The notes beneath the pieces are model-generated. The model made no database searches. It was not told the DNA's origin and saw only the letters and a list, made by a program, of their open reading frames with translations. Position numbers and translations under genes: made by a program. A DNA stretch of 64,000 bases from a virus (taxonomy: Duplodnaviria > Heunggongvirae > Uroviricota > Caudoviricetes). The stretch is from IMG/VR virus record IMGVR_UViG_3300032167_000073; one strand, given 5' to 3'. Positions 1,197 to 62,515 of the stretch are shown piece after piece; positions within the stretch are counted from its first letter, which is position 1, and each line of letters begins with the position of its first letter.

Positions 1197-1240
1197 AAAT
1201 CAGAAAAAGTATTGACAAATAAAGCGTCTGGAGTTATACT
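1197..1240 (+). promoter_or_regulatory. conserved phage promoter module, class 1 (AAATCAGAAAAAGTATTGACA-N17-TATACT)
   Basis: TTGACA at 1212-1217, TATACT at 1235-1240, followed by conserved CTAACCaTAGTCAA element. Confidence 0.7.
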
Positions 1241-1284
1241 CTAACCATAGTCAACGAGTTACAAGGCTGTGAGGAGGAAACACC

Positions 1285-2424
1285 ATGAAGAGCACGTACA
1301 TCATCCCGGAATGCGAGCGCGAGACGATCAGCCGCGAGTTTGCCCGCTATCAGCGCAAGGCAGATGCCTACGGCCAGAAGGTCAGCATTTCCCTTGGCGA
1401 TCCCTACGCAAAGCGCATCAGCGTCTACGTGGCGGATGAGATCAACCACTGCAAGCGCAAGGTTGATGATCGCCTGATGGAAGTGTTCGACGTTCAGTTG
1501 GATGCCGAAGTGATCCGAAAGAACGGCTATACTGTCGTCGCCAAGATCGAGCATTCGCCGGATGGCAATGTGGTGTACGCGCTCACAGACGAGCAAAGTC
1601 CGGCATGGCGCACGATGGTTGCCCGCTGCGAGCATTGCGGCGGCAATCACAACCAGCTCACAACCTTCATCGTCCGCGATGAGCAGGGGAACGATAAGCA
1701 GGTTGGCCGTACTTGCCTGAAGGATTATACGGGCATCGACCCCAGCGCGATCCTGAGCCTCAAGCAGCTTTGTGATATCCTTCTCAGAAGCGACGTGTAC
1801 AGCCGGGATTTTTCTAAAGCTCCGGCAAGCCGCCTGTATGAGACCGTCCGCGTGCTGGCTCTGGCGATCAGGGTGCAGAAAGCCTATGGCTATAAGGCCG
1901 CTTCAAAGGTGGGCAGCAACAAGGAAAAGCTGGAAGACTTGATCATCAAGGGCGAAGAGCCAACGGTCAGCGAAATGAACGAGGCCGATCAGATTGCCGA
2001 AGAGATCAAGGCGATGACGCTGGAAACCGCTGCAAAGCATCTTCTTGACAGCGTGCAGACGCTTTTAAAGCGCGGTTACTGCAAGACCTCTCATCTTGGC
2101 TTTATGGCGTATGCACCGCTTGCCTACATGCGCTATAACGAGGCAAGGCTGAAGGCAGAGGCTGAGGCGAGCACGTCCGAGCATGTCGGCGAAATCGGTC
2201 AGCGCCTCACCATTGAACTGTCCGATATGAAGCTCCTGACTTTTTGGCTCAGTGACTACGGCCACACCTACATGTATAAGTTCACGGACAAGGCCGGATG
2301 CGTGTATATCTGGTATGGTTCCAAGCTCATGGAGCAGACAGACAAAATCAAAGCCACCGTCAAGGGGCACAACGAGCGAGACGGTGTCAAACAGACGATC
2401 ATCACCCGCTGCAAAGCAGCTTGA
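1285..2424 (+). CDS. hypothetical protein (379 aa), Cys-His cluster
   Basis: long ORF with GAGGAGG RBS; CEHCGGNH motif; no family recognised. Confidence 0.6.
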   Translation: MKSTYIIPECERETISREFARYQRKADAYGQKVSISLGDPYAKRISVYVADEINHCKRKVDDRLMEVFDVQLDAEVIRKNGYTVVAKIEHSPDGNVVYALTDEQSPAWRTMVARCEHCGGNHNQLTTFIVRDEQGNDKQVGRTCLKDYTGIDPSAILSLKQLCDILLRSDVYSRDFSKAPASRLYETVRVLALAIRVQKAYGYKAASKVGSNKEKLEDLIIKGEEPTVSEMNEADQIAEEIKAMTLETAAKHLLDSVQTLLKRGYCKTSHLGFMAYAPLAYMRYNEARLKAEAEASTSEHVGEIGQRLTIELSDMKLLTFWLSDYGHTYMYKFTDKAGCVYIWYGSKLMEQTDKIKATVKGHNERDGVKQTIITRCKAA

Positions 2425-2438
2425 AAGGAGAAATACCA

Positions 2439-4435
2439 TGGAAAACAGACATCATGACAAGTACATTATGGCCGAGCTGATTTGCACGCGCACGGGCGAT
2501 AAGGGCGGCTTGATCAAGCATTATTTGTGCAGTCTCTCCGGCGAGGATGTCGGAGAGATCATGTGGCGGGAGATCCGCCCATACGCTTGGCAAAAGCCAT
2601 ATACCGTCTATGTGAATTATGTGGATGAAAGGACGTTCGGCCATAGCAAGTTCCAGAGAAGGTCTGAAATCGGCAATTATGATACACTCATTGAGTGCAA
2701 GCGTGCGCTACTTGATCCTGCCAAGGCATATCTTGAAGCAAAGCGGGAGGCAGAGGCGAAGAAGAACAGACAGAACACCTTCACGCCCGCTGCCTATCTG
2801 CCCGCAGGCGAAACGCAGTTCTATCCTACGCCGTCCGATGTGGCAGGCAAGCTCCTGTCCGGCGTGGATTGGCGCAAGGTGCGCACAATCTTGGAACCCA
2901 GCGCAGGCCGTGGCGACCTTCTTGAATTCGCCATGAAGCGCAATGAGAACGGCTTCCGTGGGTATAGCTATCACGATCTGGATGATATCGACTGTATCGA
3001 AATCGATCCCAATTTGCAGGCTATGCTCATCGGCAAGGGGTTCCGTGTCGTGCATGACGATTTCCTCAGTTACTATACCCGCAAGCGTTATGACCTTATT
3101 CTCATGAACCCGCCCTTTGCAGACGGCGATGCACATTTGCTCAAGGCGCTTGAACTGTGCGAAAATGGCGGTCAGATTGCCTGTATCCTCAATGCGGAAA
3201 CCATTCGTAACCCGTATACCAATAGCCGCAAAGCGCTCATCAAGGAGCTGCGCCGCCGTGGTGCGTCTATCCGCTATTTGTCAAACGCCTTTGCCCATGC
3301 TGCGCGTCGTGCGCGTGTGGATGTCGCCCTCATCAATATCAATATCCCGAAGTCCTTACAGGATGATACCCTGTGGGAAGGGCTGAAAAAGGCGAGGGAA
3401 GAGCGCTTTGAATACTTTGGCATGCAGGAAGTTGCTCCGGCCAATCAGGTGGAGCGCCTGATCCGCGAGTATGATATCCTCTGTGAAGCCGGAATCGACC
3501 TCATGAAAAAGTATAACGGCGTAAAGCCGCATATCCATAACGGCAAAGGGGAGTATTCTGCGCCCATTATCAAGCTGAAGATTGGAGATCATGATTTCAG
3601 CGGCAGTAGCGAGGATGTCAATCGTTTCCTGCGCATTGCGCGTGGCCGTTATTGGCGCGAGCTGTTCGATTTGCCGGAACTGCGAGAGCGCATGACTTCG
3701 CAGATGCGCAAGGATTACAGCTCTATCATTGAAGACATGCGGGATTATGAATTCTCCATGTTCAATGTGCAGCAGGTGCTTGAGAAGATCCGCGCCCAGC
3801 TTTGCAGCGGCGTGGAGGAGGCTATCGTCAAGTGCTTTGACAAGCTCTCCAATGAGCATGCCTATCATAAGGATATCGCAAACGATAATATCCATTACTA
3901 TAACGGCTGGAAGACCAACAAGGCGCATTGCGTCAATCAGAAGTGTATCATTCCGACGTGGGGCTGCTTTGCAAAGAGCTTCAAGCCCGACAAGCACGGT
4001 CATTACCGCGATGTGCTGGAGGATATTGATGCGCGTGGCTGCTTCTCTGTGCTGGATGATCTGGAAAAGGCACTCAACTATCTGGACAAGGGCGAAACGG
4101 GCAGCGTCGATCTGTTTTCCAGTCTGCAAAGCGCTGCGACGTGCGGCAGATCCAGCAACATCGTCTGCAAGTATTTCTCTGTTACCTTCTATAAGAAGGG
4201 AACCTGTCATATCAAGTTCCATGATCAGAAGATCGTAGACAGGCTCAATATCTACGTGGGCAGGCAGCGTTCTTGGCTTCCGCCGTCCTATGGTTCCGTC
4301 AGCTATCAGGAGATGGACGAGGAAAGCAGGCGCGTCGTCGATGAATTCCAAGGCCGTGAGAAGTACGAGGAAATCATGCATTGCCCGAATGACTATATGA
4401 TTGAAACCAATGCGATGCCGCTTCTGACGGCTTAA
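2439..4435 (+). CDS. N6-adenine DNA methyltransferase, gamma-class, with large C-terminal domain (665 aa)
   Basis: AdoMet motif I LEPSAGRGDLL followed by catalytic motif IV LILMNPPFADGD; start chosen at ATG after AGGAG RBS (ORF-track start at 2252 overlaps upstream gene). Confidence 0.7.
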
Positions 4436-4450
4436 AGGGAGGGAAACAAC

Positions 4451-4774
4451 ATGGCACGCCGTAGGTCTGAAATCTATATGAATTGCGATGATTGGGACAA
4501 CCTGTGCAAGACCTTTGCAAAGAATCACATTCAGGATATCTTGAAGGAGCGCCGCAGGATGGATATGTATTTCCGCAGGCAGCGCTTCTATGGCGGCGTA
4601 GCCTTTGTTGTGGGCGCGATCCTCATCATTGTCGGGTATTGCCTGAATATGCCCATGCTGCGCGGGCTTGGCCTTGCTGCTGGTCTGGTTGGCCTGTATC
4701 TGTTCATCACGAAAGCCATGGTCATTACGGACGAGTATTATTTTGAGTGCCAATCGCGTTTAATGATTCTTTGA
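4451..4774 (+). CDS. small membrane protein (107 aa)
   Basis: two hydrophobic helices VAFVVGAILIIVGY / GLAAGLVGLYLFI. Confidence 0.5.
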   Translation: MARRRSEIYMNCDDWDNLCKTFAKNHIQDILKERRRMDMYFRRQRFYGGVAFVVGAILIIVGYCLNMPMLRGLGLAAGLVGLYLFITKAMVITDEYYFECQSRLMIL

Positions 4775-4775
4775 A

Positions 4776-4823
4776 AAATAAAGCAGAAAAAGTATTGACA
4801 AAGCATGGAGCTGGAGTTACAAT
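4776..4823 (+). promoter_or_regulatory. conserved phage promoter module, class 1
   Basis: AAAGCAGAAAAAGTATTGACA (TTGACA 4795-4800), N17, TACAAT; downstream ACCTTAGTCAAAG element. Confidence 0.7.
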
Positions 4824-4877
4824 TACCTTAGTCAAAGGAAACAACACCTAAAACGAGATTAACAGGAGATAAAAGAG

Positions 4878-5330
4878 ATGTTTTATTTCAGCACAGAAAG
4901 ACCGATCACACCCGGCTCTCTGCCCAACCATTTAAAGCCGCTTTCCGTCGAGAACTTCCCGGAAAAGACATACTGCCCGGAGATCGACGGCGAGGCGTGG
5001 GGTAAGGTGGAGTTTGAGAATCCGCTTTCCGGCTATGAAGCCATGCTTTCCGAGCTTGTCCCGCAGGGCAGCAGGCATTACTTCGGCGTGCGCTATGTAC
5101 GCCATGGCAGGCAGTACGTTTCCCCTTGCCCTCTGGATGTTGGCCGGGATGGACTTCCTAAGATGCGCAAGATGAGCGCATACGGCATTGAAAAGCCGTC
5201 TAACAAAATCGAGATCCGTACAAAGCCAGAAGAAAAGAATTTCTATGACGTATGGTTCAATACAGAAGCCGAGCGCGATCAGTTTATGGACAAATTGAAG
5301 GAGGAAGCAGCACATGAAGATCAGCATTGA
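4878..5330 (+). CDS. hypothetical protein (150 aa)
   Basis: ORF downstream of promoter module. Confidence 0.5.
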   Translation: MFYFSTERPITPGSLPNHLKPLSVENFPEKTYCPEIDGEAWGKVEFENPLSGYEAMLSELVPQGSRHYFGVRYVRHGRQYVSPCPLDVGRDGLPKMRKMSAYGIEKPSNKIEIRTKPEEKNFYDVWFNTEAERDQFMDKLKEEAAHEDQH

Positions 5331-6537
5331 TGGCAAGCAGTTTAAGGAGGCTGTAGATAGGGCAATGACGCTCATCAAAGGTCGTCCGGTGATTTATCTT
5401 ATGGAGTGCATCAAGCTTATCGCTGATGATTCCGGTGCGTATCTTTTCGCCACCAATGGCCTTTATGCGCTGAAAATCAAGCTGGATGCGCATGTTGTCG
5501 AGCAGGGTGAAGCGTATGTTAATGCCGACGACATGAAGAAGGTATACGCAATGCCCGGTTTCCTCTCCATCGAGGCGGGAAAGGCGTTTGTCGTGCGCAA
5601 TGGCAAGAAGCGCAGCGAGGTTGTCACCCGTGCAGCAGATATGGATCTGGAATGCATGTTCGTCGGTAATGTGAAGGATGCCAAGGATGGTGGGCAGCTC
5701 TTTGCCGTAGGCGCTGATGTGCTTATGTCCATGCTTCGCGCTACGGATTGCGCCAGAAGTCAGGCTGAGGAAAGCGGTGGTCGTGAAGTGCTTAACGGCT
5801 TCAATTTCAATGGCGGTCTGATGAAGCTGGTTGCGCTGGATGGTTATCGCCTGCATGCGGTTAAGCTGGCGGTTGATGAGGTTGATTCTGTCAAGATGAA
5901 CGGCTTTAATAAGGCCGTGCATGGCGATATGTATGCTCATCTGAAGAAGATCGTCAAGGGCAAGAGTGCCAAGGGCGTGCTGCATGTGCATGACTTTGGT
6001 AAGTATATGAAGGTCATCGGCGGCGATTTTGAATACAGCATTTGCTATATTCCCGGCGATCCGCTCAAGGTTGAAAAGATCATCCCTGCGCAGTTTGATT
6101 TTTCCTATCGTCTGAGCGTCAAGGAGCTGTCTGAGATCGTCAAGGGATATAAAGCGAATTGCATTTGCACCGATGAAGTCGGCGCAAAATCGATGCATAT
6201 GCACATTGTAAACGGCCAGCTTCGCACGGGTATGATGCATTCTGAGATTCATACCATGGATGAGCTTGAAGGTTATAGCCCGGATTATGGCATGAACGAC
6301 AAATACTTCCATAGCTTTAATGTCCGCTATGTATATGACGCGCTCACCGCGATCAAGGAGTATGACGATGACGACGTTGTTATCGCTTCCGGCACCAATA
6401 GCTATAATATGATGACAAGTATCAATGTGCATCCGCTGCTTTTGACGCATGGCGATATGCTTTGTCTGGTTCTCCCTGTACGAATTGCAGAAGAGTATAT
6501 TCCGGCCATCAAGAGCTTCATGCAGTCCGCTATGTAA
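5314..6537 (+). CDS. DNA polymerase sliding clamp (DnaN/beta-clamp-like), 407 aa
   Basis: LFATNGLYALKI and VALDGYRLHAV resemble the conserved ATDGHRLA segments of beta clamps; size fits three-domain clamp. Confidence 0.5.
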   Translation: MKISIDGKQFKEAVDRAMTLIKGRPVIYLMECIKLIADDSGAYLFATNGLYALKIKLDAHVVEQGEAYVNADDMKKVYAMPGFLSIEAGKAFVVRNGKKRSEVVTRAADMDLECMFVGNVKDAKDGGQLFAVGADVLMSMLRATDCARSQAEESGGREVLNGFNFNGGLMKLVALDGYRLHAVKLAVDEVDSVKMNGFNKAVHGDMYAHLKKIVKGKSAKGVLHVHDFGKYMKVIGGDFEYSICYIPGDPLKVEKIIPAQFDFSYRLSVKELSEIVKGYKANCICTDEVGAKSMHMHIVNGQLRTGMMHSEIHTMDELEGYSPDYGMNDKYFHSFNVRYVYDALTAIKEYDDDDVVIASGTNSYNMMTSINVHPLLLTHGDMLCLVLPVRIAEEYIPAIKSFMQSAM

Positions 6538-6568
6538 ATATGTGTACATAAAGAAAGGAAAGTAAACT

Positions 6569-7933
6569 ATGAGCAATGTTTCAATGCAGAGAAAAATTGA
6601 ACTTCTCGAACAGGTTAAGCCAATTCGTACTTTACCGAAACTGGATGTTCTGACAACGGATATGGCGGATATGTACTTCGGCATGAGCAAGGGGCGATGT
6701 TCAAATGCAATCTGTACCGGAAAGGCGTTCCGGGGGGGGGTTGATGGATCTCCTTGCCTAATCCATATCACCAAAGATATGCTGATTCAGAGTGGATACC
6801 GTGCAACAGTGGTTTGTAATGGCGTAAAGGAATATGCGCTAGATGATACGCGAATTCTCTATGGAAATTTGACGCGCATTGGTCTGACAAAAGAAGCAAT
6901 GGTTTATCTTGCTGAAATGTTTAAAAAAGCGCCCGTAGCTATTGAATATCGCAAACTGCTGCAAAAGGAAATGGAATGTAGTGAATCTGGCAATAAGCTT
7001 GAAAGCGAAACGCCCATTGCACCTGAAGCCATTGCTGTGCAGAAATCCGAATCTGCTATTGTTGTCGAACCAATCATTGCAGAAGATTCTGAATCTGTCC
7101 TGACCGTCTCCGAAATGAACCGCATGGAATCCGAAAAGCAAATCTCCCATGCCATTCGTTCCTTTGTCAGCGATCAGTTCGGCGAAATCCGAACGGTCAT
7201 GAAAGATGGTGAACCGTGGTTTGTCGCGGCGGACGTGTGCAGGGCGTTGAAGATTAATAACAGTCGTGATGTGATTAAGAGGCTTGACGACGATGAAAAG
7301 AATACCGTCGCTTTAACCGACGGAAATCGCGGCAACCCAAATAAGACTATTATCAACGAACCCGGTCTGTACGCGCTCGTCCTCGGAAGCCGCAAGCCGG
7401 AGGCGAAAGCCTTTAAGCGCTGGATTACCCATGAAGTCATTCCGACGATCCGCAAACACGGCGCGTATATGACCCCGGAGAAGCTGGAGGAAGCGCTGCT
7501 CAATCCGGATGTGATGATCAGGCTGATGAAGGACTTGAAGCAGGAAAGAAAGCTGCGCCAGCAGGCAGAATGGCGCGAGCGTCTTGCAGTTGCAAAAAGT
7601 AAGATTCTGATGGTTGAAGCTCAGGAGTGGGATTACATTGAAATCATCAATGCGCTTATGCGCAAATGTGCGGCTTCGCATTTTGCTGGTCAGTTTCAGC
7701 TTGCTTATGATGAGTTGCATCGTCAAATCCGGTATAAGCATGGTATTGCGTTGAAGAATCGAAAGAAAGCGAAAAACGCGAGTTGGCTATCTACCGCAAA
7801 GCCGGAAGAACTGCCTAAGATTGCGCAAGTTGCTGCAACAATTTGTGAAAGTCGTGGCACGGATATTTCCGATGTAATCAATGATGTTAATGCGAAAATT
7901 ATGTCGCGTGCAAATCGTCGCGGCGTTGCTTGA
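6569..7933 (+). CDS. BRO-N domain protein (phage antirepressor/KilAC-type), 454 aa
   Basis: central region FGEIRTVMKDGEPWFVAADVCRALKI...EPGLYALVLGSRKPEAKAFKRWITHEVIPTIRKHGAY matches Bro-N consensus. Confidence 0.7.
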   Translation: MSNVSMQRKIELLEQVKPIRTLPKLDVLTTDMADMYFGMSKGRCSNAICTGKAFRGGVDGSPCLIHITKDMLIQSGYRATVVCNGVKEYALDDTRILYGNLTRIGLTKEAMVYLAEMFKKAPVAIEYRKLLQKEMECSESGNKLESETPIAPEAIAVQKSESAIVVEPIIAEDSESVLTVSEMNRMESEKQISHAIRSFVSDQFGEIRTVMKDGEPWFVAADVCRALKINNSRDVIKRLDDDEKNTVALTDGNRGNPNKTIINEPGLYALVLGSRKPEAKAFKRWITHEVIPTIRKHGAYMTPEKLEEALLNPDVMIRLMKDLKQERKLRQQAEWRERLAVAKSKILMVEAQEWDYIEIINALMRKCAASHFAGQFQLAYDELHRQIRYKHGIALKNRKKAKNASWLSTAKPEELPKIAQVAATICESRGTDISDVINDVNAKIMSRANRRGVA

Positions 7934-7994
7934 AATACAGCAGCGCTTATGATACAATAATTTGTAATAGGAAACGTTGGAGGAAGAAAGCTAT

Positions 7995-8375
7995 ATGGCA
8001 ATGACAGCAAGAGAATGTCTTGAATTGCATGCGCTTTATGAAAGTACGCCCAAGGAAGTCGTTGCGTCCAATATCAACCGTATTTTCGGTTATTATGATA
8101 TTGAGCGCACGACTAGCCGCTTTAATCCCGGCAACAAGAGAACCAGAGTGCTCTGCAAGATCACCGATACATGCCGATACACCGTCCTTGGCTGGATGAA
8201 TCTGTCGCGTCAAGACGTGAGAATCCCGCTTTTAAAGCTGTGCGTGATTGCGGAAACCTTTGGCGTAAATATTACCGATCTTCTGAGCAGCGATCCAAGC
8301 TGGTATCTGGATAATGAGCAGCTTAGAAAGCGCCTAGATATTCTTGTTGAACATATGACGGAGGAAATAAAGTGA
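7995..8375 (+). CDS. hypothetical protein
   Basis: ORF on + strand; start uncertain (7977 or 7995). Confidence 0.4.
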   Translation: MAMTARECLELHALYESTPKEVVASNINRIFGYYDIERTTSRFNPGNKRTRVLCKITDTCRYTVLGWMNLSRQDVRIPLLKLCVIAETFGVNITDLLSSDPSWYLDNEQLRKRLDILVEHMTEEIK

Positions 8376-8581
8376 AAAAGTTTGGTATTGAGATCACCAA
8401 GGGCAACGACGAACATCTTGTCAAGACCTTTGACGGCAAGGATGAGGCGATGTCTTTTGGCGCGGATTATTTTAAAACCATGAAGCGCGAGGATGGCGTG
8501 CTCACCTGTTTTGAAGGTGAGTTTGACGAGCTTGGAAATCGCGTGGGCGATGAAGAGCGCGTTTGCCATGTGTGGTATTGA
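8372..8581 (+). CDS. hypothetical small protein (69 aa)
   Basis: overlapping start ATGA with upstream gene. Confidence 0.4.
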   Translation: MKKFGIEITKGNDEHLVKTFDGKDEAMSFGADYFKTMKREDGVLTCFEGEFDELGNRVGDEERVCHVWY

Positions 8582-8610
8582 CACATGGCTTTAAAAATTC
8601 TTTTAAAGAA

Positions 8611-8653
8611 AATGCAGAAAAAGTATTGACTTTTGAATCGTCTGGAGTTAAAC
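8611..8653 (+). promoter_or_regulatory. conserved phage promoter module, class 1
   Basis: AATGCAGAAAAAGTATTGACT-N16-TAAACT then CTAACCTTAGTCAAG. Confidence 0.65.
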
Positions 8654-8704
8654 TAACCTTAGTCAAGAAACAACACAACTTAGCAATAGATGGAGGTTAG
8701 CGAT

Positions 8705-10603
8705 ATGTGTAAGGTCACGATGAACGAGGAAAAGAACGGTATTGAGATCCGCTTTGATGAGAAGCCGGACAAGGCTGTGCTGGAAATGCTCAAGGATGGC
8801 GGTTTCCGTTGGAGCCAGAAGCAGAAGATGTGGTACGCCAAGAAGAACGATGAGCGTATGTCGCTGGTCGCTAATCTGGATTCTGTTTCCGTTGAAACCA
8901 AAGCAGAAAAAGTAAATACGCAAGATAATGCGTATGATCTCTTTGAGATGACCAGAACCGATACCATCGGTAACAACGTGGATAAGAGCCTCTCCGCCAA
9001 GGAGATTGCCGCGATCATCCGCAAGCATATGCGCAGCCGTTTCCCGTTCTGCAAGTTCTCCGTGACCACGGATGGAAGCGCCTATAACGCTTCGATCAAT
9101 CTGGATATCCTCAGAACGCCGTTTGAAAAGGGCAGCGAAGAGTTTGAGGCCATCCGCGAGTATTTCAATAAGTACACCGCAAGCTTCAATTATACGGAAG
9201 ACCGTGATCCGTACAGCGATTATCCCGGCACCACCAATTTTTACGGTGGGCATTGCAGCGGCTGCTATCGCTACGTGCAGGGTGAATTCACCGAGGAGAT
9301 GAAGCAGATGTCCGAGCGCTTTATGGCATCCAAGCTGGCGCATAAAATCAGCGAAGACGAGCGCTCGAAGCGCGAATACGAAATGCTTATGGCGCAGGAG
9401 GAAGAGAAGCGCCGCGAGAGCGAGCGCCGCGAAGAGATCCGCCGCGCCAATCATGATCTTGTTGAATCCGGCGCTGTGGTCAAGAATCTGGATACGCCGT
9501 ACTTCCTTGAGAATGTCATCGAGCTTAAACATGGCAAGAATGACGATATTGCCGAATATGAGAGCGAGCATGCCGATAATCCCGGCTCCCGTGTCGCTTG
9601 TCAGGTGACGCGCGAAGTGCATCTGTGCGCCGACCTGTATAAGCTCTTTGCCTCTCAGCTTCTGGATGATTGGAGCTTCATTTCTGGCACGGGTGGTAGC
9701 CGCACAGAGGATATGCGTATCAGCTCTTTCCTTGATTACGAGATGATGACCAAGGACGTGCAGGATACCGTGCATTGGTTCTCCCGCAATTGCGTCGCCA
9801 TCTTCTGTGAGGGCAAGATGATGTGCGTTGTCGATGCGCAGGGTTATACGTATTGCCGCTATGTCTTCTTGGTCGATGGCGCGACTTATATGGCGGATAG
9901 CCACGAAACCAAGCAGGCCATCACCAAGGAAGAGTATGAAGCGTATGCGCAGCAGGCCGACCGCCTTGAGGATGCAAGCGCCGAAATCATCCTTGTTAAT
10001 CATTGGGAAGAGGCGGGCAACAAGTGGAATGTTGAGCGTTTTGAGGAGTATAAGCAAGCGATGATCGCTTGGATGGAGCATAACAAGTTCCCCATGAGTG
10101 TCCATGTCGTCCGCGCAATCCCCTCTTCAGTTGGCGATGAATTCAAGACGGCCATGTATCGCATCTTGCAGTTTACGCAGGGTATCCGTTATCAGATGGC
10201 AAAGGCGGATATTCATCCCGGCCAGAAAATCACCATCGTCAAGATGGATGAATGGCTTGGCGGCGTGCGCCCGATTCGTTGCACGTTTGAGGAGTATGTG
10301 GAATGCCGCTATGCGCAGCATGAAGACAATGTGCGCGTTACCTTCAAGCAGGAGCGTAAGCACAATCTGTCCGCTATGCATATCCATGGCGATGTGCTCA
10401 TCTATGACGGCTATATCCCGGATATCCCGGAAGAACTGATGTGGGATGTGAAGGTGAGGCCGAATGGCGTAGTCACCAAGCTTTCCCGCTTTATGTCCTT
10501 TGACCATAAGCAGTATGACGTGATCATGGAGCATTATAAGAAGCTTGGCTGTAATCTCTTGGTCAATACGATCAATAACGAATTTGCCGACAAGGAGGAG
10601 TAA
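8705..10603 (+). CDS. large hypothetical protein (~633 aa)
   Basis: long ORF after GGAGG RBS; N-terminal GIEIRFDEKP...GFRWSQKQKMWY module, central charged/coiled region; no family assigned. Confidence 0.6.
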   Translation: MCKVTMNEEKNGIEIRFDEKPDKAVLEMLKDGGFRWSQKQKMWYAKKNDERMSLVANLDSVSVETKAEKVNTQDNAYDLFEMTRTDTIGNNVDKSLSAKEIAAIIRKHMRSRFPFCKFSVTTDGSAYNASINLDILRTPFEKGSEEFEAIREYFNKYTASFNYTEDRDPYSDYPGTTNFYGGHCSGCYRYVQGEFTEEMKQMSERFMASKLAHKISEDERSKREYEMLMAQEEEKRRESERREEIRRANHDLVESGAVVKNLDTPYFLENVIELKHGKNDDIAEYESEHADNPGSRVACQVTREVHLCADLYKLFASQLLDDWSFISGTGGSRTEDMRISSFLDYEMMTKDVQDTVHWFSRNCVAIFCEGKMMCVVDAQGYTYCRYVFLVDGATYMADSHETKQAITKEEYEAYAQQADRLEDASAEIILVNHWEEAGNKWNVERFEEYKQAMIAWMEHNKFPMSVHVVRAIPSSVGDEFKTAMYRILQFTQGIRYQMAKADIHPGQKITIVKMDEWLGGVRPIRCTFEEYVECRYAQHEDNVRVTFKQERKHNLSAMHIHGDVLIYDGYIPDIPEELMWDVKVRPNGVVTKLSRFMSFDHKQYDVIMEHYKKLGCNLLVNTINNEFADKEE

Positions 10604-10753
10604 GCACGATGCTGAAGCTGATTCCGAATTGGTTTGATCTGAATTTGACGTGCGCTACTTGTCATATGACAAAGAGCGTCAAATATAAGGTTCGATGCCC
10701 GAAGACCGAAAAGGTCATGACCGTATGCAATCGGTGCGCGGCCATGATGATAG

Positions 10754-12456: not shown

Positions 12457-12505
12457 AAAATAATCCCGAAAAAGTATTGACAAATGATTTTGCTGGAGTT
12501 ATACT
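12455..12505 (+). promoter_or_regulatory. conserved phage promoter module, class 1
   Basis: CCCGAAAAAGTATTGACA (12477-12482), N17, TATACT, then AACCTTAGTCAAGAG. Confidence 0.7.
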
Positions 12506-12546
12506 AACCTTAGTCAAGAGAAACAATAACTTTGGAGGGGAAACAG

Positions 12547-52978: not shown

Positions 52979-52981
52979 TAA

Positions 52982-53780: not shown

Positions 53781-53784
53781 TTAA

Positions 53785-55953: not shown

Positions 55954-56703
55954 ATGACGGATAGGGTTACATTGCATCAAGGAGACTGCCTTGAGCTGAT
56001 GAAGGAGATCCCAAGTCACAGCATCGATATGGTTTTGTGCGATCTTCCATATGGCGGAGTAACCAAGAACAAATGGGACTCCGCGCTTCCTCTGGATGAG
56101 CTGTGGAGGCAATACAAGCGAATCATCAAGCCTAATGCTGCGATTGTGCTGTTTTCAGACGGCATGTTTGAAGCAAATCTGATGCTCTCCAATCCGAAAA
56201 TGTGGCGGTACAATCTCGTTTGGGATAAGGTGCTTGTCACTGGATTTCTGAATGCAAACCGTATGCCACTCAGATCCCATGAAGAAATCTGCGTCTTCTA
56301 TGATAAACAGCCAGTATATCATCCGCAGAAGACGATAGGGGAGAAGAATCATAGCAGCGGTGCAAAGAAGGATAGAGCAAACCATAATTATGGCTCATTC
56401 GATTTTGTTGATAATTCAGAATCGCTTGGCTGTATGAAGCATCCAAGAAGTATCGTTCGTTTTCAAAAGCCGCACGCTTCTAAGACGGTTCATCCAACTC
56501 AAAAACCTGTTGAGCTGTGTGAATACCTGATCAAAACCTATACTGATGAAAACCATATCGTGCTGGATAACTGTATGGGTTCTGGCACAACGGGCATTGC
56601 CTGCGTCAATACAGGCAGGCGTTTTATCGGTATAGAAAAGGATGAAGGGTATTTCAGTATAGCAGAACGTCGAATTCGTGATGCAATTCATGACAACAAA
56701 TAA
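55954..56703 (+). CDS. DNA methyltransferase, beta-class N6-adenine/N4-cytosine (DPPY family)
   Basis: motif IV CDLPYGG precedes AdoMet motif I DNCMGSGTTGIA; HPTQKPVEL. Confidence 0.8.
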   Translation: MTDRVTLHQGDCLELMKEIPSHSIDMVLCDLPYGGVTKNKWDSALPLDELWRQYKRIIKPNAAIVLFSDGMFEANLMLSNPKMWRYNLVWDKVLVTGFLNANRMPLRSHEEICVFYDKQPVYHPQKTIGEKNHSSGAKKDRANHNYGSFDFVDNSESLGCMKHPRSIVRFQKPHASKTVHPTQKPVELCEYLIKTYTDENHIVLDNCMGSGTTGIACVNTGRRFIGIEKDEGYFSIAERRIRDAIHDNK

Positions 56704-56744
56704 TCCAGAAAAAGTATTGACTGAAACGTGGATTAGATGTATAA
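56701..56744 (+). promoter_or_regulatory. conserved phage promoter module, class 1
   Basis: AATCCAGAAAAAGTATTGACT (56715-56720), N18, TATAAT (56739-56744). Confidence 0.65.
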
Positions 56745-56768
56745 TAATGTCAATCAATACTTATAGGA

Positions 56769-56900: not shown

Positions 56901-56935
56901 CCTAGTTTAAAACCAAAGCAGACAAAGTATAAACA
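56901..56935 (+). promoter_or_regulatory. conserved promoter module, class 2
   Basis: AAAACCAAAGCAGACAAAGTATAAACAG. Confidence 0.45.
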
Positions 56936-56979: not shown

Positions 56980-58293
56980 ATGTACAACGCATACATTACA
57001 ACAATCCGGGATCTAAGAAAGCACAGCAACGCAGATCGTCTGCAGTGCGCAACAATCTTCGGAAATAACGTCATTGTCGATCTGAGCTATCAGGTCGGTC
57101 AGCGCGTAATCTATTTCCCGGTCGATGGTCAGCTCAGTGAAGAGTTTGCCAAGGCTAATAACCTTGTCCGAATCAAGGATGAAAACGGAAACAACACAGG
57201 CGGATATCTTGACCCGGATAAGCGGAATATCACAGCACTCAAGTTGCGCGGCGAAAAGTCTGATGGTCTGGTTCTTCCGATTAAGGTACTTGAGCCGTAT
57301 GTGGACATCAATACCCTTGTCGATGGCCAGCAGATCAGCGAGCTCAACGGGCATCTGATTTGCCGTAAGTATATTCCACGCAGACAGGCGGCGAAGACGA
57401 CTGGCGGTAACGGAAAGTATAAGGATAAGCGCAAGCCGGAGGATAAGGTTAATTATCCATTCTTCAAGGAGCATATCGACACGGCGCAGCTCGCCTATAA
57501 TCAGGGCGCGTTCAGGCCGGGTGATACATGCTACATCACCTTGAAGATGCATGGAACTTCCGCAAGAACGGCCAACACCATTGAGGTTCGCCGCAAGCCG
57601 ACTCGTTTCTATCATCATCTTTTCCGCACAAAGCCCAAGGAAACCCGTCATTATTCCTGCGTAAGCGGTACGCGCCGTACCACGCTCAGGAATTACGACG
57701 GCGGATACTATGGCAGCAATGCGTTCAGAGAGCAGTATCATGCGATGCTGCGAGATCGTCTGCCCAAGGGTATGTGCGTGTTCTACGAGATCGTTGGCTG
57801 GATTGATGAGAGCAAGACCATTATGGGACGTTGCTCCAATAAGCTGGTTAAGGATAAGGAGTTCACAAAGCAGTATGGTGATGAGACTGTCTTCTCCTAT
57901 GGCTGCGATATCGGCAAGAGCGATATCTATGTCTATCGCATGACTATGAGCAATGAGGATGGTTACGAAGTTGAAATCCCGTGGGAGCAGGTCAAGATCG
58001 AATGTGAAAAGATGGGTGTGAAGTGTGTTCCTGAATTTGAAAAGTTCATTTTCACCACTTGGGAAGACCTCATGGAGCGCGTTGAAAAGTATTACGACGG
58101 CGCAGATCCCATCGGTAAGACGCATGTACGAGAGGGCGTAGTTGTGCGAATTGATAACCGCGAGCACTTTACAGCCTATAAGCACAAGAATTTCAGCTTT
58201 AAGGTGCTTGAAGGAATCATCAAGGATACAGCGGATGCCCCGGATATTGAAGAAGCTGAGGAGCAGATGACAAATGATGTTCAAGACGAATGA
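56980..58293 (+). CDS. ATP-dependent RNA ligase (Rnl2-like nucleotidyltransferase) with N-terminal extension
   Basis: motif I KMHGTS (cf. T4 Rnl2 KIHGTN), motif IV/V REGVVVRIDN...K; start after AAGGAG RBS. Confidence 0.6.
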   Translation: MYNAYITTIRDLRKHSNADRLQCATIFGNNVIVDLSYQVGQRVIYFPVDGQLSEEFAKANNLVRIKDENGNNTGGYLDPDKRNITALKLRGEKSDGLVLPIKVLEPYVDINTLVDGQQISELNGHLICRKYIPRRQAAKTTGGNGKYKDKRKPEDKVNYPFFKEHIDTAQLAYNQGAFRPGDTCYITLKMHGTSARTANTIEVRRKPTRFYHHLFRTKPKETRHYSCVSGTRRTTLRNYDGGYYGSNAFREQYHAMLRDRLPKGMCVFYEIVGWIDESKTIMGRCSNKLVKDKEFTKQYGDETVFSYGCDIGKSDIYVYRMTMSNEDGYEVEIPWEQVKIECEKMGVKCVPEFEKFIFTTWEDLMERVEKYYDGADPIGKTHVREGVVVRIDNREHFTAYKHKNFSFKVLEGIIKDTADAPDIEEAEEQMTNDVQDE

Positions 58294-59302
58294 ACACTCT
58301 CTTGAAACTCCGCAAACTTTGGGCGTTTCAGAATGCAATTCTGACGATAAAACACCCGTTTTATTCATGATGATCGGTCTTCCGGGCAGCGGCAAGTCTA
58401 CTTACGCCAAGGAGATTGCTGCTGACCCTGAAGGTCTCCATCCGGTCATTCTCTCCTCCGATGAGCTCCGCAAGGAGCTCTTTGGAGACGATGAAGATCA
58501 GAGCCATAATGCGCAGGTTTTCGATGAGCTTCACAAGCGCATCAAGGAGAATCTGCAAAATGGCGTGAGCGTCATCTATGATGCGACCAACATCGATAAG
58601 AAGCGCCGCGTCGATTTCTTGCAGTCCATCAAGAAGATTGATTGCATTAAGACCGCTATTGCTGTGATGACTCCGTATGACGTTTGCCTTGAGCGCTGTA
58701 AGAAGCGTGACCGCAAGGTGCCGGAATACGTCATTCGCAGAATGCTCATGAACTACGCGCCGCCTCATATCCATGAGGGATTCGATTATGTCCACTTCGA
58801 CTTTGAGCATGCCGATTTGGACTGCGACGCTCCTATGAAGTATTCTCTGTGCAATCTCTCTCAGCATCCGGGCGGTTTCTTCGATCTGGATCATGAGAAT
58901 AAGCATCATCGTGATACGGTTGGCGTGCATTGCTTCAATGCTATGATGTATCTGTATTTTGCAAAGCCGAACCATAAGCTTTTGCAGCTTGCAGCCCTTC
59001 TTCATGACATTGGTAAGCCGTTTACGAAAACCAAGATGAATAAGCGCAGAGAGTTTGACGGCGACTATCATTATTATCAGCATCACTGTGTTGGCGCATA
59101 TGAATCTCTTTTCTATCTGATTTATCTTGCACTAACCAATAATGAACGCGCATATATCGCCAATCTGATCTATTACCACATGCATCCTTATATGAGCTGG
59201 AAGCAGTCTGAAAAGGCGAAGCTCAGGGATATGCGCCTGATTGGTGAGGACATGTTTGCCGATGTTATGACGCTTCATGAAGCCGACATTGCTGCACATT
59301 GA
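58274..59302 (+). CDS. polynucleotide kinase / HD phosphohydrolase (Pnkp-like end-healing enzyme)
   Basis: Walker A MMIGLPGSGKSTYAKEI, DATNIDKKRR kinase lid; C-terminal HD domain LLHDIGKP ... HH. Confidence 0.65.
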   Translation: MMFKTNEHSLETPQTLGVSECNSDDKTPVLFMMIGLPGSGKSTYAKEIAADPEGLHPVILSSDELRKELFGDDEDQSHNAQVFDELHKRIKENLQNGVSVIYDATNIDKKRRVDFLQSIKKIDCIKTAIAVMTPYDVCLERCKKRDRKVPEYVIRRMLMNYAPPHIHEGFDYVHFDFEHADLDCDAPMKYSLCNLSQHPGGFFDLDHENKHHRDTVGVHCFNAMMYLYFAKPNHKLLQLAALLHDIGKPFTKTKMNKRREFDGDYHYYQHHCVGAYESLFYLIYLALTNNERAYIANLIYYHMHPYMSWKQSEKAKLRDMRLIGEDMFADVMTLHEADIAAH

Positions 59303-59313
59303 GGTGAAATAGA

Positions 59314-59547
59314 ATGAAGAGCAAGAAGAACATGAAAGCTGCGCATGAGATCATGGATAAGATGCAGAAGACGGCAACCGCCTCCGGCATTCTGATGACC
59401 ATCAGAATCATCAAGTCTATTTACAGCGACGAGACAAAGAGCGACAAGGAGAAGCTTGATGCCATTATCGCTTTTGTCGATAGTTCCTATGAAAAGTTTG
59501 AATCCGGGCGCAAGCAGGCAGCAGAAAAGGCGGCGGCTTCTAAGTGA
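59314..59547 (+). CDS. hypothetical small protein
   Basis: ORF on + strand. Confidence 0.4.
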   Translation: MKSKKNMKAAHEIMDKMQKTATASGILMTIRIIKSIYSDETKSDKEKLDAIIAFVDSSYEKFESGRKQAAEKAAASK

Positions 59548-60005
59548 CATATAATAAGGAAGAAATTGCCTCCGTTGCTGATAGCCTGAAATGCGCAGCA
59601 CAGGCTTCTTATATCCCGTTTAACTGCGGCGCAAAATGCCCAGCTTACAATTGGTGCAAAAGCGGTACTGACGGGTTTGACAAGGATAAAGATTGCATCT
59701 TTGATCAAGCCGCTGTGATGCTTGAAGATTACATGAAGATCCTGCCAGAGCCTCTAAAGCCTCTCACAGTGGATGAGATGATTGCCTATGTGCAGGATAA
59801 GAACAGCGTCCCCGTTCTGTATTGGCTTTCACGCGATCCAAAGCGTAAATCTGGATGGGAGCATGTCGTTTCAATCACTTATGGCATTAATTTCAACGAT
59901 CAGAATCAAATGGATTTTGTGCGTGAAGGATACGGAAAAAGATATGTTGTCTTTACGAAAAAGCCATCTGATGATGAAATCGCTGCTGTCCAGTGGAGGG
60001 ATTAG
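59544..60005 (+). CDS. hypothetical protein (153 aa)
   Basis: ORF on + strand. Confidence 0.45.
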   Translation: MTYNKEEIASVADSLKCAAQASYIPFNCGAKCPAYNWCKSGTDGFDKDKDCIFDQAAVMLEDYMKILPEPLKPLTVDEMIAYVQDKNSVPVLYWLSRDPKRKSGWEHVVSITYGINFNDQNQMDFVREGYGKRYVVFTKKPSDDEIAAVQWRD

Positions 60006-60008
60006 CCG

Positions 60009-60255
60009 TATGCAATCAGGCGAAACAAGATCAAACGGGTGCTTTGTTGCACAGCTTGCAGATTATCTTCCGCATATGGTGTCAAAGGTAATCTGCCTCA
60101 AATGCTATAAGCGATGGATAGCAGTCCGTCCAACACATACATTGCTTGAATCGCTGGAATGTCCAAACTGCGGTGCCGGATACGTTATTGAAACGGGACA
60201 GGTATTGAAAAACAGCGATTCTTACAACGAAGAGGAAGTAACACATTATGAATAG
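60009..60255 (+). CDS. small zinc-ribbon protein
   Basis: CLKCYKRW...CPNCGAGY. Confidence 0.4.
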
Positions 60256-61162
60256 AGACGCACTTGGCGACCGAATGAAAGCATATCAAAATGTGCATCG
60301 CATTTATCTGACTAGGCGCATGCCTCTGATTATCCGTATTGATGGCAAGGCGTTCCGTAGTTATACCCGCAATTTTACGCAGCCATATGACAACGTTCTC
60401 ATTTCTTCGATGCAGCAGACAGCGAAGTATCTGTGCGAAAACATCGAGGGGTGCAAGCTTGCTTATACGCAGTCGGACGAGATTTCACTTCTTCTGACGG
60501 ATTATAAGACGTTCAATACGCAGCCATGGTTTAGCAAGAATTTGCAGAAGATGGTGTCCGTCGCAGCAAGTATGGCGACTATGGCGTTCAACCAAGCATT
60601 TACCGATGCAACTTTTGATGCAGCAAATTATGCTTACAACGATGAATTGCATAACACTACGGAAGATCGTCAAAAGGCATATGCCGAAGTAATGAACAGG
60701 TATAAAGCAAAATGTGGCATGGCAATGTTCGATGCCCGTGCATTCCTTCTCCCCAAAGAAGAGGTGTGCAATTACTTCATCTGGCGGCAGCAGGACGCAT
60801 CTAGGAATTCCATCAATATGCTTGGCAGAGCATATTTCTCTCATAAAGAGATGAACGACAAGAATACCAGCCAGATTCAGGACATGCTCATTGAAAAGTA
60901 TGGTATCAACTGGAACGACATTGAAACGCATAAGAAGCGCGGTTCCTGTGTGATCAAGGAGACCTACGAAACGAAGGTTCCAATGACAAAGGTTCGTCCA
61001 AAGAAGGATTCTCCTGAAAACTGGCAGGACATTGAATTCATTCCTATCGCACCAGAACTCGATGTTCCAACCATTCAGCGATCCAGATGGATTGTTGATA
61101 TGGAGATCCCAATTTTTACAAAAGACCGTGAGTATATCGATAAGTATGTACGAGGAGGCTGA
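60248..61162 (+). CDS. Thg1-like protein (tRNA-His guanylyltransferase family 3'-5' polymerase)
   Basis: YLTRRMPLIIRIDGKAFRSYTRNFTQPYD and AYTQSDEISLLL match Thg1/TLP catalytic core. Confidence 0.7.
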   Translation: MNRDALGDRMKAYQNVHRIYLTRRMPLIIRIDGKAFRSYTRNFTQPYDNVLISSMQQTAKYLCENIEGCKLAYTQSDEISLLLTDYKTFNTQPWFSKNLQKMVSVAASMATMAFNQAFTDATFDAANYAYNDELHNTTEDRQKAYAEVMNRYKAKCGMAMFDARAFLLPKEEVCNYFIWRQQDASRNSINMLGRAYFSHKEMNDKNTSQIQDMLIEKYGINWNDIETHKKRGSCVIKETYETKVPMTKVRPKKDSPENWQDIEFIPIAPELDVPTIQRSRWIVDMEIPIFTKDREYIDKYVRGG

Positions 61163-61413: not shown

Positions 61414-61416
61414 GAT

Positions 61417-62055
61417 ATGACGGAAGAAAAAAAGAGCACGTTTGCCGTGCTCAGTAACGTTGATGTCAGCGAAAAGATTAAAGAAAAGAATAACCTGAGA
61501 TACATTTCTTGGGCATCTGCATGGGCAGAGGTGAAGAAGCGCTACCCTGATGCAAAGTTTCATGTGTATAAGCAGATCATGGATGATGGTGGCAATACCC
61601 GCCCGTGGCATACGGATGATAAGTCTGGTTGGGTTGAGGTCGGCGTAACCATCGATGGCGAAGAGATCATTGAAACGCTTGCCATCATGAATCATGCGAA
61701 CAAGGCGATTCCGGCAGCGGATATTACGTCCGTCGATGCAAATAAATCCATTAAGCGTTGCCTTGTCAAGTGTATCGCCCTCCATGGTCTTGGCCTGTAT
61801 ATCTATGAATCTGAGGATCTGCCGGAAGAGCTTACCAAGATCATTGAGCTGCAGGAAAAGATCGCAGAACTGGTCAAGAAGAAGTGCGCATTGTCTGATG
61901 CTGCAAAGGCAAAGGTTAAGGAATACTGCGTAGCCGCAGAAAAATCCGCCAATCCGCAGATGGAAGACGATGAGATTACTGGCAACTATAAGAACATTGA
62001 CGACATGGGTGTTCTTGAAAAACTGGAACGTCAGCTTCTGGCTGTAAGAAAGTGA
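61417..62055 (+). CDS. Rad52/Sak-type single-strand annealing protein
   Basis: NKSIKRCLVKCIALHGLGLYIY resembles the Rad52-family ...ALKRAL..FGLG..LY signature; sits next to SSB. Confidence 0.55.
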   Translation: MTEEKKSTFAVLSNVDVSEKIKEKNNLRYISWASAWAEVKKRYPDAKFHVYKQIMDDGGNTRPWHTDDKSGWVEVGVTIDGEEIIETLAIMNHANKAIPAADITSVDANKSIKRCLVKCIALHGLGLYIYESEDLPEELTKIIELQEKIAELVKKKCALSDAAKAKVKEYCVAAEKSANPQMEDDEITGNYKNIDDMGVLEKLERQLLAVRK

Positions 62056-62065
62056 GGAATAAACT

Positions 62066-62482
62066 ATGGGTTTTAGACAGGATGCATTTGCGCGAGTATG
62101 GAGCGTAACCGCGCACGAAAACTATTCCACTGCAAATATTACGGTAAGCCGTAAGTCTAGGGAAGATGAATCAAAGTACGAGGTTGTCTTCAAGGATGGA
62201 TACACTCGATTTGTTGGCGAAGCGCACAAGAAGATTTCTGGCGTTACCGTTGGCGACGGCGGTATTTCCATCAAGATTCTCTCCTGCGATGTAGAGAACC
62301 GATACGATGCGGATAAGAAGAAGCTGTATACCAATTACATGGTGTTTGATTTCGAATTCCCGGATTCAAACGGTGGCGGCAAGACTGGTGGAAAGTCCAG
62401 CAGTGCAGCAAAGTCTTCTCCAAAGGCTTCAAAGCCAGCTCCTGCAGCAACCGAAGCTGACGAAGAAGAGCTTCCGTTCTAA
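62066..62482 (+). CDS. ssb: single-stranded DNA-binding protein
   Basis: OB-fold-sized N-domain, Gly/Ser-rich linker, acidic tail ending DEEELPF. Confidence 0.7.
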   Translation: MGFRQDAFARVWSVTAHENYSTANITVSRKSREDESKYEVVFKDGYTRFVGEAHKKISGVTVGDGGISIKILSCDVENRYDADKKKLYTNYMVFDFEFPDSNGGGKTGGKSSSAAKSSPKASKPAPAATEADEEELPF

Positions 62483-62486
62483 CAAA

Positions 62487-62515
62487 TAACCAAAGCAGAA
62501 AAAGTATATCGAGGT
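62487..62515 (+). promoter_or_regulatory. conserved promoter module, class 2
   Basis: AACCAAAGCAGAAAAAGTATATCGAGG. Confidence 0.45.

Follow-up and report, generated by a model that had tools for sequence, protein, structure and literature searches.

A co-oriented A-rich box in a large uncultured phage genome may be the operator of an MrpR/SroF-like global regulator

In the Bacillus phage SPbeta, a 15-bp element called SPBRE, present in ~10 early promoter regions, is the operator of the master repressor MrpR (YopR) (PMC10516654). The orthologue of MrpR in phage phi3T, SroF, is bound as a monomer to a non-palindromic, A/T-rich box of 26 bp, of which it reads 24 bp, and its sites are multiple and lie in distant regions of the genome (bioRxiv 10.1101/2025.11.27.690993). 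Here we analyzed a stretch of 64,000 nucleotides from a tailed phage (Caudoviricetes; IMG/VR record IMGVR_UViG_3300032167_000073), hereafter the window, in which a box with the 16-mer core AAAKCAGAAAAAGTAT recurs in two settings. In class 1 the core is fused to a host-type promoter; in class 2 it stands without promoter hexamers. We favor the interpretation, with a probability of roughly 0.55, that the shared core is the box of a phage-encoded global regulator of the MrpR/SroF type and that class 2 represents promoter-less copies of this box at operon heads.

The window is a portion of a larger phage genome, of which overlapping metagenome contigs cover at least ~110 kb; Ga0257091_10001918 and Ga0257089_10001184 reach ~25-36 kb past the window. 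Together with two loci that both overlap the window, L020 on its upstream and L019 on its downstream side, ~84 kb were scanned in all. When up to two mismatches were allowed, the core had 21 matches in the window, all on the + strand, compared with 0.10 expected from shuffled sequences, and the top over-represented 12-mer of the window came from this core. A position weight matrix scan of the window returned 22 sites on the + strand and none on the − strand; the same scan of L020 and L019 returned 14 and 0, respectively, with 7 of the 14 lying beyond the window ends. The total was 29 box copies in ~84 kb, all co-oriented. Twenty of the 23 window sites were non-genic (binomial P = 4e-17), the non-genic fraction of the window being 10.6%, and all convincing window genes are on the + strand. 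These counts agree with an earlier, sequence-only reading of this DNA, which had noticed about 20 intergenic copies of a shared A-rich core, and the copies were not distributed equally over coding DNA and both strands, the pattern that it had named as speaking against its proposal. The match at 22101, which has two mismatches, lies within an open reading frame (ORF) and has no conserved flanks, is doubtful as a true copy. The conserved block is non-palindromic and spans ~24 bp in class 2.

Class 1 comprised 18 sites (12 in the window, 5 upstream and 1 downstream) with the consensus tTTtAAAAAT-AAAnCAGAAAAAGTAT-TGACA-N17-TAtAaT. The class 1 cores of the window start at 1197, 4780, 8611, 12462, 14083 (degenerate), 21353, 23701, 29439, 37934, 41771, 48324 and 56702, in agreement to within a few bases with the ~12 TTGACA/TATACT-type sites of the sequence-only reading. 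All 12 have TTGAC(A/T), a 17-bp spacer (18 bp once), TAnAnT and a gene on the same strand, as expected of sigma-70/sigma-A promoters with a spacer of 17 ± 1 bp, and most score at least 11/12. Of the sigma-70-type sites in the window that score at least 11/12, all 13 are on the + strand, and the module is present at 11. Good sigma-A-type promoters free of the module are found on the + strand at 7930-7958, 15251-15279 and 45879-45907. Judged by these hexamers and spacers, the class 1 sites are host-type (sigma-70/sigma-A) early promoters. Apart from four modules near the left end and the promoter of the candidate regulator gene, both described below, they are located at 21344-21396 (core 21353-21368; hairpin 21317-21333 upstream), 23692-23744 (core 23701-23716; overlapping the last 17 codons of a reverse transcriptase (RT) ORF), 29430-29482 (core 29439-29454; perfect TTGACA-N17-TATAAT), 37925-37978 (core 37934-37949; 18-bp spacer with an inter-hexamer block GTCTGGAGT; hairpin 37904-37924 upstream), 41762-41837 (a tandem with core 41771-41786 and −10 at 41809-41814, immediately followed by a class 2 box at 41814-41837), 48315-48367 (core 48324-48339; perfect hexamers) and 56693-56745 (core 56702-56717).

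The class 1 core occupies −36 to −51, so that the box adjoins the −35, and its A-tracts are about one helical turn apart. UP elements have a described consensus, and strong early promoters of phages often have A-rich DNA upstream. The A-rich DNA at −40 to −60 here resembles both UP elements and PeSL cassettes, and the latter also resemble this genome in their hairpin-plus-promoter units among small early genes. The core might be a mere host UP element that contacts the C-terminal domain of the polymerase alpha subunit through A-tracts near −41 and −53 and gives the early promoters their strength, with class 2 consisting of decayed or truncated promoters that lack any function themselves. We consider this explanation quite unlikely. 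An UP element needs no invariant C, G and GTAT positions, whereas these non-A positions are invariant here. Conservation well past the needs of sigma-70, as the earlier reading had pointed out, is real. In addition, unlike UP elements and PeSL cassettes, the box has copies without a promoter or inside an ORF and variants that are specific to each genome, and class 2 has its own conserved prefix and is kept at orthologous positions over long distances.

Class 2 comprised 10 window sites and one downstream site. Their consensus is a 24-bp block, tAaAACC-AAAGCAGAAAAAGTAT-a, with no conservation beyond it, and the cores in the window are at 8900, 15201, 15627, 23803, 29787, 39501, 41821, 48745, 56915 and 62492. 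CC stands just 5′ of the core in 9 of 11 class 2 sites but in 0 of 18 class 1 sites (P = 5e-6). The class 2 sites lack a −35, and no −10 recurs among them at a fixed distance. In the box at 48738-48761 (core 48745), the Shine-Dalgarno sequence (SD) begins at the first base past the core, where GTAT is directly followed by GGAGGatattacgATG (GTAT, then GGAGG...ATG), so a transcription start site could lie no further 3′ than the last base of the block, a constraint that excludes a layout of the sigma-70 or MotA type. The two flavors proposed from the sequence alone are real, but the six class 2 copies listed there missed those at 8900, 15201, 39501 and 41821, and the view of class 2 as a second temporal class of promoters is not supported for a box that has neither a −35 nor a fixed −10 and is abutted by an SD at 48745. 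Likewise, a next gene within about 25 bp was found at 5 of 10 sites (gaps of 11-22 nt); the other gaps are 49-319 nt, or the box is inside an ORF.

Seven of the 10 class 2 boxes in the window have a class 1 site 50-1118 nt upstream, six of them at 50-421 nt. The box at 8893-8916 is inside an ORF with an LPD29 domain (tgaaaccAAAGCAGAAAAAGTAAa), 289 nt after its class 1 partner at 8611, and that at 23796-23819 follows a hairpin (23756-23783) 102 nt past a class 1 core. The box at 15620-15643 comes after the hairpin 15592-15606 and 22 nt before the ATG at 15665, which opens the first gene of a 12-gene operon. The box at 29780-29803 precedes tRNA-Leu(TAG), the first gene of a tRNA array, by 11 nt, as had been noticed before. 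A class-2-like variant at 39494-39517 (aaataatAAAGCAGAAAAAATATa) has AAT in place of ACC. The class 2 part of the tandem, at 41814-41837, is 19 nt before the ATG at 41856, and the same tandem exists in relative L030 and at yopV and yonX of SPbeta. The box at 56908-56931 is 49 nt 5′ of the RNA ligase ATG, and the lone box at 62485-62508, with a degenerate orthologue in relative L035, heads the replication block, 14 nt ahead of the ATG at 62522. Hairpins near the sites were missed by a built-in terminator scan, as their T-runs are short; a custom scan found clear stems at seven sites.

In T4 middle promoters, which use sigma appropriation, the MotA box, centered near −30, replaces the −35, and a sigma-70 −10 is kept 11-13 bp from the box. 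Class 2 is similar to these promoters in that a phage box takes the place of the −35 at DNA-metabolism genes, often downstream of early promoters. It differs in having no −10 at a fixed distance: in the hexamer that starts with the TA of GTA, the TA is fixed but the final T is not conserved, being absent in most copies, and a start 7 nt past this putative −10 would fall within or after the SD. No MotA or AsiA homologue was seen. A sporulation-sigma or extracytoplasmic-function-type reading of GTATA/AAC and a downstream −10 were also considered and were rejected by inspection, the spacing being inconsistent.

The main alternative, possible but doubtful, is that class 2 is the promoter of a phage-specific machine, such as a YonO- or T7-like polymerase, a phage sigma or an appropriator. 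Transcription would then start at or next to the A past GTAT and drive middle genes (tRNAs, RNA repair, NAD salvage and replication), and class 1 would consist of host promoters preceded by this recognition block. Class 2 does resemble T7-type and YonO promoters in its contiguous conserved block of ~23 bp, which ends where a leader must begin, 11-22 nt before an ATG or tRNA at five sites and abutting the SD at 48745, and which is followed by a purine. The terminator-like hairpins directly 5′ of 15201, 15627 and 23803, the lone class 2 sites that head the replication and NrdD blocks, and the class-specific CC also favor such a machine, and YonO-like polymerases occur in some Clostridia phages with a pol III alpha resembling that of this phage. 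SPbeta YonO has one late promoter per genome, of unknown sequence (PMC5467207). Searches with Pfam, PHROGs and SPbeta YonO (phmmer), however, turned up neither an RNA polymerase nor a sigma, whether in the ~84 kb or in the fragments from relatives, and a YonO-like polymerase was undetectable by tblastn in any phage of the PBC2/Kirov/FADO group. This reading would also leave unexplained why the block is present at −36 to −51 of 18 host-type promoters, why a box inside an ORF keeps a fixed distance of 289 nt from a class 1 site, and why the core is broken solely at the promoter of the MrpR-like gene.

Strict co-orientation with transcription, the frequent position just 5′ of an SD and the copy 11 nt before a tRNA could alternatively mean that the element works at the RNA level, where it would mark polycistronic early transcripts for processing or affect their translation or stability. 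This we regard as very unlikely, since class 1 copies precede the start sites of their own transcripts, four class 2 copies have no ribosome-binding site (RBS) beside them, and the SPbeta box, a proven DNA operator, has the same co-orientation and SD adjacency. No conserved RNA structure was found, Rfam models recognized only tRNAs, and the mean folding energy around the sites was no different from that of controls.

To follow the boxes in other genomes, we used relatives that had been reached via protein homology and not via motif scans. In these relatives, boxes were kept at orthologous positions while their flanks diverged. The box upstream of the RNA ligase gene was kept in five relatives (L035, L036, L043, L159 and L170), and the spacing of the pair at this gene was 209 nt in L043 compared with 213 nt in the window. 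The class 2 box past the orthologue of ORF 14154-15152 was kept in L160 and L198, and L035 has an orthologous degenerate box before the HD gene. In three genomes, the box in the LPD29 ORF lies 289, 284 (L167) and 289 nt past its class 1 partner, each time in the genome's own variant. The phage in assembly ERZ3810914 uses the variant ATAAGACAAAAAAGTA at four class 1 sites, three class 2 sites and one site in the LPD29 ORF, exactly 289 nt past the partner; that in SRR15046823 has AAAGCAAAACAAGTAT in both classes, and the window phage has AAAGCAGAAAAAGTAT. Adherence to a genome-specific variant even inside coding sequence argues for one trans-acting factor that serves both flavors and against a plain UP element or decayed promoters. 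From this pattern of conservation, class 2 is under selection as DNA.

Similarity between copies could also have arisen by the spread or homogenization of mobile promoter cassettes through recombination rather than by recognition by a factor. Such spread has been proposed for PeSL cassettes in T4-type phages. Many small ORFs here are flanked by hairpin-plus-promoter units, and a cassette made up of the promoter at 15251, a single gene and a terminator has a class 2 box on either side. As a substitute for recognition by a factor, we consider cassette spread highly improbable: conservation is position-specific, in that spacers vary while the core and the CTGGAGT described below are fixed, and orthologous sites have retained their boxes in phages with proteins only 46-75% identical. 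A grouping of the copies by position (orthology) rather than by genome is already partly seen. Cassette spread is nevertheless compatible with a repressor box.

The candidate for the trans-acting factor is the product of ORF 14154-15152 (+ strand, 332 aa). When a profile of 41 homologues of this ORF was aligned by hhalign with a 7-sequence MrpR profile, the probability was 94.5% (E = 8e-8) over 274 columns, nearly full length. An AlphaFold2 model of the protein had a pLDDT of 90.8, and its best Foldseek matches were phi3T SroF bound to DNA (TM-score ~0.6), SroF bound to Sar and YopR/MrpR (9rgl, 9rd5; 8bj6, 8a0a), with Tn1549 Int, XerA, lambda Int and Cre ranked below SroF/YopR. Weak MrpR_N_CB matches were present in 20 of 41 family members, and several homologues have a precomputed MrpR_C_cat match. 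By profile and modeled fold, the ORF 14154-15152 product is a distant homologue of MrpR/SroF, and by analogy with these proteins it would bind the box and act as a repressor. A phage-encoded factor or sigma had been postulated from the sequence; a factor remains plausible, with this protein as the candidate, but it is of the repressor type, and no sigma was found in the ~84 kb.

The MrpR-like gene is its own transcription unit. Its promoter (14074-14126, + strand; −35 TTGACT, −10 TATAAT) contains the most degenerate core of the window (14083-14098, AATACAGTAAAATACT), in which the 3′ GTAT is lost, and the cores at the corresponding promoters of L160 and L198 are degenerate on the 3′ side in a similar way. 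Downstream of the gene are a terminator-like hairpin at 15162-15182 (GAATTCCCTGAAAAGGGAATT) and a full class 2 box at 15194-15217 (taaaaccAATGCAGAAAAAGTAAt), 34 nt 5′ of the sigma-A-type promoter 15251-15279. This order of gene, hairpin, full class 2 box and sigma-A-type promoter is conserved in three genomes (the window, L160 and L198). Two small ORFs further 5′ is ORF 12547-13506 (319 aa), a member of the tyrosine-recombinase family (PF00589) under a class 1a promoter, and this synteny is also found in L198 (7842-8783). Its HxxR, H and Y motifs are apparently intact. We considered this ORF as the MrpR-like factor and rejected it (BLASTP E = 0.9; hhalign probability 0.1).

In the SPbeta sequence, SPBRE abuts the −35 (aimR and yonX) or lies within the spacer (yonP), and at yopV, yopM and, as a second copy, yonX it follows a promoter and immediately precedes the SD. 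These contexts are those of class 1, class 2 and the tandem 41771/41821 in the window. By profile and fold, the candidate resembles MrpR of SPbeta and phi3T as an integrase-fold protein of ~330 aa, and the box resembles SPBRE and Phi3TRE in being long, asymmetric, A/T-rich and co-oriented at many distant early regions, with a sequence that diverges between related phages together with the repressor. The tyrosine-recombinase gene just 5′ of the repressor gene in the window and L198 recalls yopP-yopQ-yopR. Several features differ from SPbeta: there are ~30 copies in 84 kb compared with ~10 peaks in chromatin affinity purification sequencing; for the majority of class 1 boxes, fusion to the −35 keeps a single register; class 2 has its specific ACC prefix; and a partner box lies in an ORF at fixed spacing. 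No Sar antirepressor or LexA box turned up here, no search having been aimed at either. No arbitrium genes were identified, and phmmer searches with proteins of the SPbeta yonJ-yoqW region, AimR/yopK among them, gave no homologue in the window or its flanks, nor in the fragments from relatives.

A similar repeat is present in the Bacillus phage FADO (NC_073050.1; L029 and L192). Its gp051 (27012-28037), annotated as hypothetical, is a YopR/MrpR homologue (E = 6e-17), and YopR homologues are present in all PBC2-type phages. FADO has at least 11 copies of an SPBRE-like repeat in its first 50 kb, 6 of them within TTGACA-N17-TATAAT promoters and 4 fused to an RBS. The FADO repeat is thus like the present box in having a promoter-embedded and an RBS-fused flavor, but it differs in lying in the spacer and the −10 rather than 5′ of the −35 and in having an SPBRE-like sequence (ATACAAATAAT). 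We know of no published description of this repeat or of the FADO YopR homologue.

In the mechanism that we propose, the core CAGAAAAAGTAT, extended to the ~24-bp block, would be the DNA box of a global regulator, most likely the ORF 14154-15152 product. At class 1 sites, the bound regulator would block the polymerase and its upstream contacts, and about twenty consensus promoters could be silenced together, as in a lysogen or carrier state. Class 2 boxes, which head long operons, would serve as second locks, either roadblocks or partner sites, against read-through. The regulator's own promoter, with its crippled box, would stay on. A need for a global repressor is indicated by relatives that carry integrases or recombinases and a CI/ImmA module and by homologues in Lachnospiraceae assemblies. 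An unlikely variant is that one box is bifunctional, an operator in lysogeny and a −35/−10-independent middle promoter during infection, with ACC setting the flavor; the MrpR-like protein or a second phage factor would then use class 2 boxes as initiation sites in lytic growth, for example by recruiting host core or phage polymerase. If true, an integrase-fold protein would here program transcription in a new manner.

Several observations weigh against an MrpR/SroF-type operator. The class-2-specific ACC (9 of 11 sites) and the usual A after the core are unexplained by it, and the ACC is not kept in all relatives. The class 2 boxes at 39501, 62492 and L019 19287 are >1.5 kb from any class 1 site, unlike the reported SPbeta sites, and the three class 2 boxes directly past terminator-like hairpins (15201, 15627 and 23803) also have the layout of a terminator-promoter junction. 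The box has no convincing likeness to SPBRE (ACAAATACAAAwAATATGTATA) or to the phi3T box; a loose, low-complexity resemblance is seen between SPbeta AATACAAAAAA..GTAT and L030 AATACAAAAAAAGTAT or the L020 copies AATACAGAA.AAGTAT. The window protein alone matches no Pfam model or PHROG, its identity to MrpR is ~13%, which is remote, and a PDB-sequence profile search missed MrpR. Phmmer and a 2- or 7-sequence MrpR hidden Markov model detected nothing significant among all ORFs, and the link to MrpR was made only by the profile from the 41 homologues. A generic test in 85 loci of relatives, for 14-mers found 5′ of a −35 that recur without a −35, was not significant, because promoter calls were noisy. 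Finally, the 84 kb scanned contain no integrase site, CI-like gene or minus-strand gene.

The same phage (~100% identity) was found in several JGI and Logan metagenome assemblies. All retrieved copies were ~100% identical, so strain variation gave no population signal. Exact-motif scans of IMG/VR and JGI metagenomes gave mostly single chance matches, the phage itself being absent from both scanned collections, and a scan of bacterial genomes gave one short rumen metagenome-assembled contig and nothing else. The cultured phages closest to it are Clostridioides phage pCD1602_4 and the 160-170 kb Bacillus siphoviruses PBC2, Kirov, Thrax, vB_BcoS-136 and FADO; its pol III alpha is 44% identical to that of FADO, and its RNA ligase is ~55-57% identical to those of PBC2, Kirov and vB_BcoS-136. 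Its family, which is large and uncultured, numbers 429 relatives in IMG/VR by RNA ligase, with contigs of 130-170 kb, and some homologues sit in Lachnospiraceae genome assemblies. The host is a Clostridia (Lachnospiraceae-type) bacterium rather than a Bacillus. In relatives, the + strand block closes with NrdD-NrdG-dUTPase and an integrase or serine recombinase; in L030, lysis genes come next on the opposite strand, and one relative has a CI/ImmA pair. The present phage may be temperate.

Most likely, then, this is a known kind of switch, of the MrpR/SroF type, in a new phage family. If so, an integrase-fold master repressor with many long monomer boxes extends beyond Bacillus SPbeta-like phages to a large family of uncultured phages (130-170 kb) with gut and rumen Clostridia as hosts, represented by the 429 IMG/VR relatives, whose repressors are too diverged for current domain models. 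It would also explain how a phage with ~20 promoters of consensus strength could be silenced. The natural box variants across related genomes provide material for studying the evolution of specificity. For annotation, the lesson is that sequence alone does not suffice to call the class 2 boxes promoters.

Subclass 1a of the class 1 modules comprises nine copies, all within the leftmost ~21 kb (4 in the window and 5 upstream of it). They have the inter-hexamer block GTCTGGAGT, CTGGAGT beside the −10, and a (C)TAACCWTAGTCAA box 0-2 nt past the −10; GTCTGGAGT and the downstream box that had been noticed in some early copies are found in 4 window copies and 5 upstream ones. The window copies are at 1188-1255 (TTTAAAAAT; core 1197-1212; −35 TTGACA at 1212-1217; GTCTGGAGT; −10 TATACT at 1235-1240; box CTAACCATAGTCAA; hairpin 1158-1175 upstream), 4771-4836 (core 4780-4795; −35 at 4795; −10 TACAAT at 4818-4823; box TACCTTAGTCAA), 8602-8667 (core 8611-8626; −35 TTGACT; −10 TAAACT at 8649-8654; box AACCTTAGTCAAG; hairpin 8566-8588 upstream), which is the partner of the box at 8900, and 12453-12518 (core 12462-12477, AATCCCGAAAAAGTAT; −35 at 12477; −10 at 12500-12505; box AACCTTAGTCAAG), ahead of ORF 12547-13506. 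The 1a extras are found among tiny genes (L020 163-8200 and window 1188-12520), and CTGGAGT is also present at the class 1 sites 37934 (37960-37972) and 41771 (41796-41808) and in L198 (20831). The (C)TAACCWTAGTCAA box holds an inverted −35-like TTGACT and is loosely like the class 2 start (AACC..AG.CA). RNAalifold found no RNA structure in the leaders with the downstream box, and compensatory pairs noticed by eye were not upheld. CTGGAGT and the downstream box may be a second operator or an immediate-early mark.

The 8.7 kb that L020 adds upstream are a run of tiny genes, and the ~9.6 kb that L019 adds downstream encode DnaB, DnaG, pol III alpha, ThyX and the anaerobic NrdD. The window has 16 tRNAs and also encodes a pol III beta-like clamp, a Bro-N protein, a TnpB/Cas12f-like protein, an RT, an NAD-salvage cluster and an RNA-repair cluster. 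The NAD-salvage set (49692-54621) consists of a nicotinamidase-like protein, phosphoribosyl pyrophosphate synthase, NAMPT and NAD synthase; an RNA ligase, a kinase/HD protein and Thg1 are encoded at 56980-61162, a Tad2-like protein at 37640-37903 and a DarA_C protein at 4878-5330. The NAD-salvage, RNA ligase/Thg1, Tad2-like and DarA_C genes are likely counter-defense and repair cargo. In several relatives (L030, L031 and L033), but not in this phage, the pol III alpha, NrdD, ThyX and DNA methylase genes are split by inteins or by LAGLIDADG/HNH homing-endonuclease genes.

The RT (RVT_1, 363 aa) lies in the region 22657-24350. Its last 17 codons are the class 1 module, so the earlier proposal that protein C-termini are simply the module translated holds for the RT, which ends in FKNKAEKVLTDHSKGGKI followed by the stop codon. 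Its 3′ side has ~390 nt without a called gene, with a hairpin and a class 2 box, followed by tRNA-Gln; Rfam models recognized no retron, group II intron or diversity-generating retroelement RNA in this region. A 785/755-aa ORF was considered as a hidden polymerase and was rejected, as it matched no RNA polymerase family (no Pfam match; PHROG of unknown function). The 755-aa ORF is at 26996-29263 (PHROG 33734), and its C-terminal part appears TerD-like by eye. ARAGORN called a tRNA of undetermined identity with a 2-base anticodon (tt) at 24624-24697, which the Rfam tRNA model did not report. A CRISPR-like array at 19598-19890 has four 36-nt repeats (GTTTGACTAGTCTAttAGGTAACACAGTTACCAAGC) with a period of ~66 nt and a degenerate fifth repeat, and is directly 5′ of a 480-aa TnpB/Cas12f1-like ORF with a TNB domain (19897-21339). 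Together, the array and this ORF may constitute a miniature type V system carried by the phage; alternatively, the ORF may be a TnpB whose guide array is unusual.

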